64,000 bases of DNA from NCBI GenBank assembly GCA_951406725.2, contig OX597818.1:9610001-9674000 (forward strand). The letters are read 5' to 3'. Below, one piece after another: positions 6,124 to 63,779 of this stretch. The stretch's first letter is position 1. Each line of letters opens with the position of its first letter. The DNA is from Octopus vulgaris (lineage: Eukaryota). The notes under the pieces were generated by a model that searched no databases, was not told the DNA's origin, and was given only the letters and a program-made list of their open reading frames with translations. Position numbers and translations under genes: made by a program.

Positions 6124-6216
6124 AATTCTCTCTCTCCCTCTTTGTCTCTTTCTTTTTCTCTCTCTTTCTTCTCTTTCACTCTCCTATATTTATATATGTA
6201 TATGTGTATGTATAAG

Positions 6217-6251
<35 letters not shown>

Positions 6252-6354
6252 ATGCATGTACATACATACATACGTATATTTTTATACGTATACATAATTA
6301 CTGATATGCAAATATACATACATGTACATAAAAATATGTGTGTAGAATGTTACA

Positions 6355-6408
<54 letters not shown>

Positions 6409-6583
6409 ACATTTACAAACACAATCTTCGAGCGAAAAATTTAAATATTAACATGAAATCTTTTGCGTATGCATAATCTAAGCTAATACAAAGAATTTAC
6501 TAATCTTTTCTCATATGATTGTGTATGTGTGCGTGTGTTTGGGTGTGTGTGTGTCTGTGTGTTTGTGTATACACTTACGTACC

Positions 6584-6644
<61 letters not shown>

Positions 6645-21804: not shown

Positions 21805-22598
21805 ATACACACACACATATATATATGCGTACATTTATATACAGATAGATGTATAAGTATATACATATACCTACATACATGCATGCATACAGAAGTGAAT
21901 GTAATTTCACTCCGAAGAGTGTTTATGCCAAGGCTTCGAAGATTGATTGGTATTTTATGCGGTGTAATTTCATACAATGTTGTGTTTAAAAAAAGAGCAA
22001 AGTGTCGTTTTAATTCATGGATTAACACTCTAGCTGTGATAGATAGGTTTCGCAATATAGATAATAAGTCTAACACTGCTAAATATCTCCAGTTTTACAT
22101 AAATAATCACTATACTGCTATTACTCGAAGTCTATTAGAGAAAATCATATTAGAACTATAGCCAAAAAAAGATTTTGAAATTGGAGTTAGATTGCAAACT
22201 AGAAAAACAGGTATTCGGCCGGTCACTAGGGATAAGAAACTAATCTAGATCGTCTTGTGAAATGAGAATGGAAGCGAGTGTCTCGGCTACAATTATTGAT
22301 CTAATTGTGTTATATATATACTCTATAAATTAAGCGAAAAATTTTCCATTGATTCAGACAGATTTATATGGAGACGATGGATTACTTATACACAATAATT
22401 GTATACCATGTACTAGTCATAGGATTAGAAAGAAACGCATCACTTTTTCAATAGATTAGGCTTAGCTATCACCACAGAAGTTAGCAGCTATACGATGCTG
22501 CTCTGAATTTGAATAATGGTCTCTATTTCCTACATATATATATAGCACACGGAGTCATTAACCTAATTGATAAATTATCTAAAAAAAAGTCATATTTA

Positions 22599-26800: not shown

Positions 26801-26851
26801 GTATATATGTGTTTGTGTGTGCATTCACGTATATATATATATATATATATA

Positions 26852-27497
26852 TTACAAAATTAGAAAATGGAGAAACATACTTAAATCAATAAAACATCAA
26901 CTATCAGATGATACCCAATCAATACTTTATTACACCATTACATATCAGTAAAGGCATTATACAAAATATACAGTAAATGTAAATAGACAAGGAAATATAA
27001 GTATAAAATATAAAATATAATATGTAATTAAATCATATCTGACAGCTGTTTCGGCAGCAAGGGCAGTCATACCTCATTTAACCTATAAGCCATAAAGGCA
27101 GGTATAAATGAGGCATTAACAAGGATGCCCCACGGCCTCTTCAGAGAATTTAATTTGTTATAATTGTGAAAAAATTATTTTTCCATATACATATAAATAT
27201 AAAAATATAAAAATGTAAAATATAAAAACTTATGCATAAACTTCATAATGCTACACATATATAATATAATACTCATTGGTACAATAATGCAAGGTAAACA
27301 AAACAAAATAAAACAAAATATATATCAGTGTATATATTAATATTAATAAGTACAGTTATTATACATATTTGGCTACAATAGATGAACTGATTGTTTGGCA
27401 ATTTTTAACATCTATGTATTAGCCTTGTTGGGTACCTATCTAGCAGTATATTGGATATATGTTATCCCATGGTGGGTTGAATTTTCAACCCCTATCT

Positions 27498-27849: not shown

Positions 27850-28325
27850 GTAAATCAGGCATTGGGACTTTCATTATTATTCTCATGACCACTTATGACA
27901 GTTCCAATGCAAATGAAGAAGACCAGGTAATTCTTACTATCATGTCATTCTGCTAAAAGACTAATGGACTGAGGAACATGATTGTTTCCAACTCAACATG
28001 AGTTTTCAAAAATCGTTATTAAGAAAGATTAATCCTAGATGCACTCATTGTGTTTCATTGCTGGCTGCAACCTTTTCACATCAAGTCCTTCATCACAGTC
28101 TCCAGACTCACGCTCGACCACTGTCAGGAAATACAGCAAATTTGTATATAACAGTGGTCGAGAATATGACAGTGTCCCAAAATGTTAATCGCCTCTCCAC
28201 CATCTCACTGGCCCAATCTTTTCTCCGCTTGATGTTGGCTGCTCGAAGAAGTGGCTTCCTTCTTGTTTCTCTGCCATAATAACCAAGTTTGTGGAGATAC
28301 CTGACAGTAAAGGTTCGGTTTGCGT
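27850..28325 (-). mobile_element. Tc1-family transposase fragment (decayed)
   Basis: TVRYLHKLGYYGRETRRKPLLRAANIKRRKDWASE..FWDTVIFS..KFAVFPDSGRA*VWRL matches the Tc1 RKPLL/WA/W..VIFSDESKF/GR.VWR pattern. Confidence 0.85.
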
Positions 28326-30784: not shown

Positions 30785-31806
30785 TAGGGGACAAGAAAAG
30801 ATAACTTGTAATGTGTGTCAACGATTTTATTGTATTTGTGAGTTCTAAGGAAGGTGATATTTGAAAACTGCAAGAATCTTCCACCAATATTTGTTCTAAC
30901 ATTAAGCAAGAAAGTGGTGGGCAATGATAAAACTTTCCGAGACCTATACCTACGATTAAATGATAGAGGAGGTAGGGGGTGTAGTAGATTTTATCAGTAA
31001 ATCTGCTATCCTGCGGGCCTTATTATAATATGTGGCAGCCTTTCCAAATACTTCTTTAGAAGAGAAAGGCATTGATCGTACGGCTAATATTTGAAATTAA
31101 GTTTTGAAATACAATAAATGGCTGAAAGGAGTGTTTATTAATATATTTAAGGTTCTCATTAGTCTTGTGGATGGTCTTACATGAATTACTTTTTGAGATC
31201 TATGAAAACAGCTACAATGACAGCTTGAGTTTGGCTGGTATCGATAGAGTTGAAGGTAGAAATTGATTGCTTTCTAAAGGAATCCATAGCGTGGACACAT
31301 ACACATATACAGATAGACGGATAGGTAGATATATACGATAGATCAGATAGATATACATATATGTATGTATATGTATACACACACACACTCCCTTTCGCTA
31401 TCTACCTTTCTTTCTCTACAGTAAACATAATCGAAAACACAGACACAGATTTTTCACCTCACAGCTGTCAGTTTTCTGACATCTACCCATCCACAAACAC
31501 AATCACGCATTCAGACACACACATACGCACATTAAGACAGTTATATACAGTCACATACACAGGCACTCATTCACAAAAGAAATCATTTAAACCTACCGTT
31601 CTTTTGACCTGCACTCTCTCACATTACTATTCTTATGCCTCCCTCCTCCTACTTCGTTTGAACTCTTGAACCTTTAGAAACTTCTAGATTCTTCTACATT
31701 CAGCCACTCTGACGTCACTCATTATAAAGAGACACTCATTAACACCATGGGCTCCTTGAGAGCGATCAGCTAAAAGTTCTTTGTGCATTTTGATGTCGAC
31801 ATAAGT

Positions 31807-31903
31807 TCCTTGATTTTCCTGATGAGAAATCTGCATAATGTACTCCTTATTCCTTCGGAATTAGGAATATGCAGCCTTCGAAACATATGTCGAGAATAAA
31901 GGA
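31807..31903 (+). ncRNA. Type I hammerhead ribozyme (minimal stem III, long stem II)
   Basis: tccttgattttc-CTGATGA-gaaatctgcata...tatgcagccttc-GAAA-catatg-TC-gagaataaagga. Intact core, 11 of 12 stem I positions pair, GUC triplet ending at 31891. Confidence 0.88.
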
Positions 31904-31952
31904 TATTTGTTAACTAGTCGTTCAACTCTTTCATATACTTATATATATATAT

Positions 31953-32175
31953 ATCCTTTTCCTTCCGGTCTTTCAAAATGTGACCTCGTGTGTACCGTTG
32001 GCGATTTTTTTCCCTCTGTCTTCCCTTCTCTGGATCTTTCCTTCTCCTATGTTTCCGACGAAGAGCTCCGCTCGAAACGTTAAGCCCTCCTTCTTTCATG
32101 AGCGTCCAGTAATACTATATTTGTTCCACGTCCTCGCGTTGTTGTGTTTCTTTGTGCTTTCTTGTTTGGATTAAC
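31953..32175 (+). mobile_element. Short element between (TA)n tracts with a hammerhead-like motif
   Basis: ttt-CCGACGA-A-GAGC-tcc-GCTC-GAAA-CG-TT-aag at 32052-32084; T-rich 3' part ending in (TA)n. Confidence 0.65.
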
Positions 32176-32232
32176 TATATATATATATATATATATTTCC
32201 GAATTTGTGTATATGTGTATAGAATAATATAT

Positions 32233-50097: not shown

Positions 50098-51354
50098 TAT
50101 CAGGTCATCCCATTAGTAAAGAAAACAAGTGATCAAATGTTATATTTAATTGAAATTTAATAATCAATGTACTTACCCTGATTTTCTATAAGTTCCCTCC
50201 ATCTAAATAACAAGCGTTTTAATCCCATCAATGTAAAACACTTTTGGTTTCAAAGGGAAGAACTCTGAAATGTCAGTTTCGACCTCCTCCTGGCTTGCGA
50301 AAGTTATGTCCCCCAACTGATTCTGTAAACTGTGAAACAAATAGTAGTTTGAAGGAGCAAGGTCGGGAGAATAAGGTGGATGAGGATTTTTTTCCCAACC
50401 AAGGTCTTCGATCTACTGTGATGTGATCTTTGCAGTGTGGGGTCGCGCATTGTCCTGATGAAACATCACTCCTTTTCGATTCACTAAAGCGGGTCTTTTT
50501 TCAAAGCTTGTTTCAAACGCTCTAATTGCTGACAGAAGACTTGAGCTTTGATTGTTGCATTAAATAGTAACAATTCAAAGTGAATTACTCCTTTGCAATC
50601 CCACCAGATAGAGAGAAGAACCTTTTTCCCATGAAGTTTCCTTCTCGGTTGTGTTTGAGCTTTTTTCCCTTTTACCACGTTTAACATTTCGATAGAAGAT
50701 CCATTTCTCGTCACCAGTCACAAGTCTATCCAAAAAGGGTGAAATGAGTTCACGAGAATGGAGAGAAGAGCAGATGTCAACTCGTGATTTGCGGTTGATT
50801 TCGGACAATTCATGAGACACACATTTTCCAAGTTTAGGAACCTTTTCACGTTGTTGAAGATGACGATGAACAGTTGTGTGACTTGAACTAAGCTTTATTG
50901 CCAATTCTTCAACTGATAATGCAGGATTTTCTTAAAATAATGCCTCAAGGAGCTTATCATCAAACTCAACTGGACGTCCTGTTCGATCTTCATCTTCAAG
51001 GCTGAAATCTCCACTTCTGAATTTTGCAAACCATCTTCTGCAAGTTCTTTCATTCAAACATTCTTTCCCATAAATTGAGTGTATGTTTCGAGTCGCTTCG
51101 GCTGCAGAGTTTCCTTTTTTGTACTCATAAAGCATTATGTGCCTCAAATACTCTTTGGATACTTCCATGTTAGAAAGGGTTTTAATCAAAAAAGTTTTAA
51201 TTCTATTATTCTGTAAAATAATATTTAATTAGTTTAAATGTACACAAATGCATAAAAATAATTTTAAATTCCATTAGACATTCTAAAATACTATTAAATT
51301 TCATTCAATTTTAAAAAAGATAAAATCGGACAGAACTTTTGGGAAGACCTGATA
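50098..51354 (-). mobile_element. Near-full-length mariner transposon (~1.26 kb)
   Basis: Termini tatcaggtcatccca / tgggaagacctgata form inverted repeats with TA ends and enclose a transposase pseudogene. Confidence 0.93.
50157..51168 (-). pseudogene. Mariner (DD34D-type) transposase, frameshifted
   Basis: MEVSKEYLRHIMLYEYKKGNSAAEATRNI..RWFAKFRSGDFSLEDEDRTGRP; CVSHEL (WVPHEL); TGDEKW; HQDNARPH; HPPYSPDLAPSNY; ends ENQGKYIDY*. Split over at least 3 frames. Confidence 0.93.
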
Positions 51355-61989: not shown

Positions 61990-63240
61990 TTAAAGTCCCA
62001 AATAAGGCGAAAAACCTTATGTAAGGGACTATAAAGAAGAAATAAAGGGTAAGAAATAAATTTACTTTAGACTTGAAAGAGGTCAGTCACGATAGAAGAG
62101 ATTGACTAGCGACAAGGGTTGCAGGGTGGAAGCAGGAGAGGGACTAATCAAATTAGAGACTCGCTTCTAAACCCGGTCGAGGAGATCCAAATGACGATGA
62201 TGTATCTGCCCAAATATGACAACAGTATTCCATACTAGGACGAAATGTAGGCTTGTAAAGAAGCAAAATAGCCGCGGGTGTTGGTAGTCCTTTGACCTAT
62301 GCACTGAACCCACCTTACGGGAAGCAGACCTACCAGTGGACTGTATATAGAATCCTCAAGAAAGATCGGGTGAAAAATTAAGACCAATCAATTTCAAAGA
62401 AGACCTTTCCTCAAGTGACATGAATGCCTCACTATGTGACACTTCAGACTAATGGGAGAAAGATAGGGATGAAAGCTACTAGCCACTTCCCGCTCCGTTT
62501 CTTATTGCCTTGCAGATCTATTTCAGGAGTAACTGCAAATTCCAACCTTTTCAAGGTATAGGGATTGCCAAGTAAATAAGAACTGAGTGTAGACTCATCA
62601 GCATAAACATCGATGATCTGAAAAACATTGGTAGGAAGATCGTTAATGTAGAGGAGAAATGAAGTTAGACAAAATATGAGCCTTGAGGAACTCAGGCATT
62701 GATAAAATACTCAGAAGTAACACCTTCCAGAGTACACGAACATACGACTGAAAGGTATGACCAAATAACATCAAAGACCTTTCCACATACTTTATAGGCA
62801 GAGAGCTTAAAAAGTAAACCAGCATGAGAAGCCCCATGAAATGCTTTGGATATATCAAGATCTATTACACGAACCTCTCCTGATTTATCCATAAATCGGT
62901 AGATGCGGTCTGTAATAAGAATCATAAGATCAGCAGTAGAACGAGAGTCACGGAAACCGTACTGAACATCAACAAGGAACCCCAAGCTATTGATAATGAG
63001 CCGTCCAAGACCTTGCTAAGAGCTAATAGGTGGCGAAAAGGGTGATACTTTTTTGGATCAGAAGGTTCGGGATCATTCTTAAAAATTTGGCTAAAGTGAG
63101 ATACGTCCCAGCAAGATGGAAAACAATACTTATTAAGGCAAATATTAAATAGCTTAAAGAGCAAAGAAGAAATCTCAGAAGTACACTGATTCAAGACGGC
63201 CAGAGGAATATTGTTAGGACCAGATGCAATTGTTAGGACC
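61990..63240 (-). mobile_element. Decayed CR1/Jockey-group LINE, RT and 3' region
   Basis: ASGPNNIPLAVLNQC..FPSCW; QYGFRDSRSTADLM..LDISKAF..HAGLLFKLSAY; VPQGS; YADE at ~62593-62604; LYKPTFRPSMEYCCHIW. Multiple frameshifts. Confidence 0.9.
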
Positions 63241-63779
63241 AGTTAGCAACTAACTTGATAAAGTACGATTAATGAGAGATTTTGGTTTATAAGGCTGGGA
63301 TTGAATTCGAACTTTTCCGAAATTAGTTCACCGAGAATTTTTTACTATAACGTTATATAGCTGAGTTGAAACAAAGGCTTATAGCAGAATATGAACACAC
63401 AATGCATATACAACAGAGTATTCTGGCATAGCAAAGCTAGAAAATTTCTTTGTTTATTTCTCGATAATATACAACCAAGGCCGAACACATTTCTCTAATG
63501 TGATGTAATTTCTTTAATTGAATATATAAACATATTCAAGTTTATTAGTGTCGTAAGAAAGGTGAGAAAAAGAGATGGAGAGTAGATTTTGAATAATTTC
63601 AGTACCACATAAATATTTATAGTTCTGCGTGATTGAAACTCTGTAAATATCTAAAAGATATTTGAGCAATATCAAGTATGTTTCATAGAAAATTAAACAT
63701 GGTAACCCCACCGTTCATCCACCCTTTCGCTACAAAATTGACAGCTATACATATGACAAGTCATAAAACCAAAAGTATG

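Follow-up and report, generated by a model that had tools for sequence, protein, structure and literature searches.

A type I hammerhead motif with a long stem II and a palindromic stem III in the pseudo-LTR of a Penelope-like element of Octopus vulgaris

Introduction

A segment at 31807-31903 of the window (the whole 64,000-nt stretch of Octopus vulgaris DNA that was analysed) was singled out in a preliminary description as a second intact hammerhead. What element carries this motif, does its RNA pair as a cleaving hammerhead would, and has cleavage left any mark in the genome? Hammerheads in Penelope-like elements (PLEs) are a known class, and palindromic stem III sequences in PLE hammerheads have already been published. 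In the available parts of the literature, these hammerheads are described as dimeric and of low activity (PMC4209133; PMC6765202), dimer pairing of PLE hammerheads is also treated in PMC3088659, and a 2014 paper (PMC4209133) states that in vivo evidence for PLE hammerhead cleavage is absent. For the anole PLE, the available portion of PMC11167929 describes AT-rich DNA nicked on both strands, internal initiation by RT, uncut RNA as the main template and cleavage assisted by protein; mutants of the hammerhead retain insertion in vitro, and none of the reads recorded there ended at the cut.

Results

The motif and its predicted fold

On checking the sequence, we found each of the parts named in the preliminary description in its place (Table 1). 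The core fits the type I pattern CUGANGA ... GAAA ... NUH and is surrounded by three helices, of which helix I is open and helix III is stable only as a predicted intermolecular duplex. The 31807-31903 segment is a real type I hammerhead motif, and its self-cleavage is predicted. The (TA)n tract that had been placed downstream is also present, from about 31940.

Table 1. Coordinates of the hammerhead parts, their host elements and related repeats
Feature	Position	Strand	Remarks
Stem I, 5' strand	31807-31818	+	11/12 pairs with 31892-31903; inner pairs kept across variants
Stem I mismatch	G31812/A31898		sole unpaired position of 12
Catalytic core CUGAUGA	31819-31825	+	sequence; in the alignment only N7 varies (partly fixed by the search pattern)
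Stem II, long, interrupted, 54 nt	31826-31879	+	GAA/UUC, CUGCAUA/UAUGCAG, UCCU/AGGA, AUUCC/GGAAU hairpin
Catalytic core GAAA	31880-31883	+	sequence
Stem III, 8-nt palindrome ACAUAUGU	31883-31890	+	predicted to pair with another hammerhead
GUC triplet	31889-31891	+	predicted cut after 31891, from the hammerhead consensus and genomic arms that begin at the next base
Stem I, 3' strand	31892-31903	+	pairs with 31807-31818
(TA)n tract	31940-31954	.	likely insertion target; 30/30 copies continue into TA-type repeats
Upstream 8-mer complementary to 31886-31893	31796-31803	+	predicted competing helix across the predicted cut
5'-truncated PLE copy	31388-31943	+	part of 3' UTR / pseudo-LTR and short tail; no ORF in the window
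Second long-stem hammerhead, 85-nt stem II, ACAGCUGU	27029-27156	-	in a PLE copy at about 26849-27375, different Hydra-like family
Tandem hammerhead arrays	G000:C1:5011305-5012441, C1:13783445-13784583, C1:33099609-33105375, C1:10836774-10838643, C1:70536803-70537541		

Stem II required a partial revision. The outer helices gaa/uuc and cugcaua/uaugcag stand as described, but the proposed inner helix uauuccu/aggaaua cannot form in full, because it shares nucleotides 31868-31869 with cugcaua/uaugcag; its place is taken by UCCU/AGGA and the AUUCC/GGAAU hairpin, for which the predicted pair probability is about 1.0. The fold z-score was -2.83 for the whole motif and -3.75 for stem II alone. There is no short loop II, and the loop sequence is not conserved between families. 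We also observed a subfamily (L054:7767-7859, L055 and L056) in which 8 nt are deleted from the distal hairpin, leaving a stem II of 47 nt, and since these copies have RT and endonuclease matches, the distal hairpin may be dispensable.

The upstream 8-mer listed in Table 1 was predicted to lower the probability of stem I from 0.88 to 0.01-0.02 in longer sequence contexts. We rejected this helix as a general switch against cutting, since most other subfamilies and families lack it or have only a weak form of it; it is restricted to the window subfamily and close subfamilies, in which the lowering of stem I would favour uncut templates.

Scans of both strands for a core with its helices found in the window only this motif and the one near 27 kb, which have the architecture in common, as had been claimed. 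Block-wise dinucleotide shuffling (n=200) gave no equally strong match in any shuffle, with loose matches at a mean of 0.245 per shuffle. An Rfam scan of the whole 64-kb window returned no matches at the gathering score and missed the hammerhead motif.

The host element

The motif lies in a copy of a PLE that ends 52 nt beyond the predicted cut. Compared by blastn with 29 other genomic copies, it was 89-97% identical to them, with a common 3' end and variable 5' ends; many of the 30 copies of the family examined have an inverted partner. The related genomic copies that had been asked for were found in at least 51 places at 97-100% identity (40 scored of 1,386 candidates, in a 2.8-Gb genome). 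The 3' ends of the 30 copies fall into three classes, 8 near +52 to +57, 7 at +68 to +79 and 15 at about +210 to +224, counted from the predicted cut.

Linkage to a Penelope RT/GIY-YIG ORF, which the preliminary description had suggested looking for, was established in longer copies, which encode RT with a C-terminal GIY-YIG endonuclease, and not in the window copy. Endonuclease matches occurred in 20 of 21 loci chosen by RT match, and a hammerhead scan found the long-stem motif of the family in 16 of these 21. One such locus (L031) has the order (TA)n, inverted pseudo-LTR (pLTR), RT frame, endonuclease frame, pLTR, (TA)n, and its RT-endonuclease is split over two overlapping frames, other copies being broken elsewhere. 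A second (L045) is a pLTR-ORF-pLTR tandem with a hammerhead-to-hammerhead unit of 3,243 bp and an ATG about 255-256 nt after the predicted cut. The element thus has the features of EN+ PLEs, namely pseudo-LTRs from partial tandems (L045), an inverted 5'-truncated arm (L031), an optional tail and a hammerhead in the pLTR. Protein relatives, mostly 32-40% identical, have RT followed by GIY-YIG in the same layout; named matches came from Argonauta and Octopus, one of them 70% identical over a third of the query. A Pfam search of the element and its homologs called neither RT nor GIY-YIG, and the lone RVT_1 match in L031 was rejected because it belongs to an adjoining LINE-type frame and not to the PLE RT.

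In the window itself, tblastn with PLE proteins detected weak remnants only, all away from the hammerhead motif. Matches to Hydra-like proteins at 20019-19840, 21946-22438 and 30838-30954 (E 1e-4 to 7e-3) are possible old PLE remnants. The repeat search and ORF list of the window consist mostly of microsatellites, and frames at 50575-50931 (-), 62692-63242 (-) and 28108-28320 resemble what we take to be remnants of mariner/Tc1 transposase and LINE RT.

Relation to the Hydra clade and to other hammerhead elements

By its motifs, set against the available description in PMC8557442, the element appears closest to the Hydra clade of PLEs (Craig et al. 2021; the clade includes Hydra-1_Obim). It has in common with that clade a C-terminal GIY-YIG, DKT in place of DKG (here SDKT), the absence of CCHH, CxxC and CxH flanking a conserved E and N in the endonuclease translations that we inspected, and insertion at (TA)n, seen in 30/30 copies. 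It differs in that the place aligned with RWK reads RWL, the unit is 3.24 kb, and an Asn-rich, Cys-free stretch in L031 and L032 replaces the CxCX5C linker. The absence of this linker is the reason that we file the element as Hydra-like and not as a member of the clade. Although the Cys motif credited with guiding (TA)n targeting is missing from the Asn-rich linker (L031 about 6200-6630, and L032), 30/30 copies end in TA repeats.

Hydra-clade hammerheads, as given in the available parts of PMC8557442, resemble the one described here in being of type I, near the 3' end and with a near-palindromic stem III of 3-4 bp, but their stem II is at most about 26 nt in 26 rows of File S2, as against 54 nt here. 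Neither of the two stem III motifs of the window occurs in the portion of that supplement available. The PLE-X1 hammerheads of spike mosses and the 'HHR_half_core' Naiads (Files S1 and S2 of the same source) are likewise long, with about 50 nt between the core halves, and the two spike-moss motifs, flagged there as deviating from canonical structure, are a real precedent for a long stem II. These are isolated cases in other clades, whereas in the octopus genome the long form prevails across numerous families.

Minimal PLE hammerheads (Cervera and de la Pena 2014, PMC4209133; Lunse et al. 2017 via PMC6765202), in the text available, share with ours type I topology, location in pLTRs, a palindromic stem III, proposed dimeric cleavage, the G10.1-C11.1 pair and many solitary truncated copies, but the extra nucleotide between 9 and 10.1, the helix II of 7-8 bp and the absent or minimal helix III of that class (PMC4209133) are not found here. 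The Anolis Poseidon PAc element (Frangieh et al. 2024, PMC11167929, as available) also has discrete 3' 'tails' downstream of the hammerhead and AT-rich targets, and it likewise uses mainly uncut RNA as template; its hammerhead overlaps the start codon, whereas here the predicted cut precedes the ATG by about 255 nt, and RNA ends at its cut were not observed, whereas here some genomic arms begin at the predicted cut. Non-LTR retrozymes (available text of PMC7229834) are likewise high-copy type I hammerheads in animals including molluscs, but they are non-coding tandem units of about 300 bp, and our motif is the end of a coding element; short non-coding tandem repeats are not a feature of this family.

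Stem II length in the genome

In the genome, stem II is mostly 41-89 nt long, with 23,873 pattern matches as compared with 2,291 short ones. By spacer, there were 2,291 matches for 10-39 nt (control 243), 15,827 for 40-58 (159) and 8,046 for 59-88 (241), counts that may include double-counting between ranges, were unchecked individually and leave out minimal hammerheads with another stem III. Hydra-profile matches lay upstream of other long-stem motifs in only 2 of 30 unselected 3-kb loci (L136 and L141), so that most genome-wide matches, taken one by one, are only putative PLE ends. Hammerheads were present in 33 of 77 metagenome loci with related RTs, and stem II was 10-25 nt in 40/40 although up to 110 was allowed. 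Among the papers listed by a literature search, none was found to describe the long form in cephalopods, and variants of this kind may be present in the supplements of the 2014 paper. As far as that search reaches, the long stem II as dominant genome-wide form is new. It is likely a tolerated or protein-binding extension that replaces the tertiary loop I-loop II contact of fast natural hammerheads, which is the weakest step of our explanation. To judge by this finding, tens of thousands of hammerheads in some animal genomes may escape Rfam and standard descriptors.

Conservation of pairing and the palindromic stem III

The earlier suggestion of selection on RNA structure is supported by 47 aligned subfamily variants, which pair in 85.3% of cells as compared with 36-46% for slid controls, with double-sided changes in 51 cells against a shuffled mean of 21.8; in stem II these changes fall at alignment columns 25/77, 31/71 and 32/70. 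Two of five covariation measures did not exceed shuffles (261/500 and 454/500), and the shuffles ignore relatedness. Core columns were invariant, an invariance that is partly built in because the pattern used to select the variants itself prescribes the core and most of stem III. The RNAalifold consensus recovered only the basal 10 pairs of stem II, and neither stem I nor the distal hairpin.

A search that left the centre of stem III free (CTGANGAG-N40-58-GAAACNNNNGTH), which is less circular than the alignment, gave 15,827 genome matches as compared with 159 for the reversed pattern. Stem III was self-complementary by eye in 98 of the first 100 matches listed (73 perfect, 25 with G-U, 2 mismatched), and by script the first 30 matches listed were 19 perfect, 10 with G-U and 1 mismatched; a perfect stem III is expected by chance in 1 in 16, although genomic copies are not independent. 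The 73 perfect cases comprised 11 different palindromes, and the palindrome differs between families with unrelated arms while self-complementarity stays. Thus the self-complementarity that had been noted for a tetraloop (AUAU as compared with AGCU) is indeed kept, but a better reading of the four bases is as the middle of an 8-nt palindrome, through which one hammerhead pairs with another. Stem III of the monomer is predicted to cost 0.6 kcal/mol, with a pair probability of 0.0, and the self-duplex to gain -7.0 kcal/mol, most cross-family duplexes being at -3 or weaker. Because of these values, and because the central two bases cannot pair in the monomer, dimer pairing is the best reading; the self-complementarity maintained across 11 palindromes likewise points to it.

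The 27-kb motif and other hammerhead repeats

The motif near 27 kb belongs to another high-copy family. Of 6 extended loci of that family, 2 have a Hydra-type endonuclease about 2.2 kb upstream. The statement that its arms are unrelated was borne out by blastn of the 31388-31943 element against 20 loci of the 27-kb family, which gave matches in 2 only, one an inserted copy of the 31388-31943 family (L072) and the other a single 20-nt match (L079). As a refinement, then, the two window motifs are hammerheads of two different PLE families and no special pair.

Directly after the (TA)n tract lies a separate high-copy repeat, 31965-32196 (+), with 2,296 candidates. It contains a minimal hammerhead-like motif (32055-32081) with a U4-to-C core change, a 12-nt stem II, a 4-nt palindrome and a fold z-score of about 0, identical in 7 of 8 loci examined. 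This repeat is probably another PLE end, its hammerhead possibly inactive. The same genome holds, in other families, tandem arrays of hammerhead units of about 534, 545, 594 and 353 bp (Table 1), which look like non-autonomous retrozyme-type repeats.

Genomic arms that begin at the predicted cut

All 30 copies reach 52-224 nt beyond the predicted cut, and their templates were therefore uncut at that hammerhead. Our search pattern for arms that begin at the predicted cut combined nucleotides +1 to +26 with three preceding bases, none of which matches the element. It gave 9 matches at 7 loci of the genome; the same design placed 21 nt upstream, our one control site, gave 1. Each of the 7 loci is a junction. 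In two, head-to-head arms both start at +1 and are separated by 1-2 extra bases; one joins +1 to +2; and in the other four, +1 abuts a different part of the element. The L244 junction has 2 nt of microhomology, and several +1 arms abut bases that are unrelated or untemplated. The arms are short stubs that end at the usual 3' ends, with one arm near +57 and the other near +215 at L237 and L239.

Unfiltered head-to-head pairs near the cut numbered 16 loci (15 examined), or 13 events after merging apparent duplicates. By script, 3 events had an arm exactly at +1 (P 0.039 against a flat model at 0.06 per event), and by eye 4 (P 0.006), two of these loci being already in the set of 7. Two more events are compatible with +1 through a 4-nt palindrome across the cut, and at L249 and L258 the pairs are fused exactly through the stem III palindrome, which suggests template switching or fold-back there. 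Microhomology therefore accounts for part of the +1 signal, as these two kinds of event indicate. RT stalling at the folded core may be another source of it. In loci retrieved by the whole hammerhead, 0 of 46 partner-arm rows were at +1, in a comparison of low power that excludes pairs with both arms at the cut. We regard the +1 arms at 7 loci, from one family and against one control site, as suggestive of a footprint of in vivo cleavage.

For RNA, we examined contigs from four runs, presumed to be RNA, that cover the pLTR. Several stop 3-4 nt before the cut, but we rejected these ends as evidence of cleavage, because a variant site 30 nt upstream explains them as branching of the assembly graph and because other contigs cross the cut. 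No circular joint was listed for these four runs.

Discussion

We consider it probable that the motif is a type I hammerhead in the pseudo-LTR of a 5'-truncated PLE copy, and that it cleaves RNA after the GUC at 31891 only as a dimer formed through its palindromic stem III. Two hammerheads would be brought together through stem III either within a tandem pLTR-ORF-pLTR transcript or between two transcripts. Cleavage of the pair would be slow or conditional and would set the 5' end of the RNA. Reverse transcription would begin at a nick in (TA)n, from internal points that lie downstream of the hammerhead by about 57, 68-79 or 210-215 nt. Where the downstream hammerhead is uncut, RT would read through and yield the common copies such as that of the window; where it is cut, RT would run off at +1 and leave a stub.

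The same fold could instead be kept for a role without cleavage, as a signal for RNA dimerisation or RT binding that rarely or never cuts in vivo. The uncut templates of 30/30 copies, the competing fold predicted over the cut site, the 0/46 partner arms at +1 and the dispensability of the anole hammerhead for insertion in vitro (PMC11167929, available text) are all as such a role would have it, but it leaves aside the retention of the catalytic core and NUH in many families with unrelated arms, as well as the 7 loci where an arm begins at exactly +1, in several cases next to unrelated or untemplated bases, and we judge it unlikely. Cleavage by a monomer, in which the weak stem III would be compensated by a new tertiary contact from the long stems II and I, draws on the 11-bp stem I, the stable stem II (z -3.75) and the fact that solitary copies are the majority. 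This seems to us improbable, given a predicted monomer stem III pair probability of 0.0, central bases whose complementarity across families only a dimer needs, and a stem II loop sequence that is not conserved between families.

That the motif is a non-autonomous non-LTR retrozyme, a short tandem hammerhead repeat making circRNA, is very improbable. Type I topology, a small stem III and an animal host would suit such a repeat, and tandem repeats of 353-594 bp do occur in other families of this genome, but the 31388-31943 family is dispersed, 5'-truncated and continuous with RT and endonuclease frames in a unit of 3,243 bp, so that the retrozyme reading is largely refuted for it. A chance match in low-complexity DNA, with which the silence of Rfam would agree, is refuted by the 0/200 shuffles and a genome-wide excess of about 100-fold over the reversed pattern, and we give it next to no weight.

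Returning to dimeric cleavage, we offer tentatively, and with more doubt than confidence, a wider reading in which more than 20,000 long-armed dimeric hammerheads would have been missed by Rfam and short-stem descriptors, and stem III palindromes would serve as family-specific pairing codes. Head-to-head stubs with both arms at the cut would then be the fossil trace of a pair of RNAs, cleaved together and copied from the nicks in both DNA strands, and cutting in vivo would decide between a stub and a long copy. If this is true, the stubs are genomic evidence that PLE hammerheads cut in vivo. The natural sets of different stem III palindromes offer a ready test of dimer specificity. The cut-site stubs of the 31388-31943 family, as far as the genome sequence goes, may be taken as a testable lead on PLE hammerhead cleavage, since copies that begin at the predicted cut make such cleavage in vivo, and its purpose, testable from genome sequence alone.
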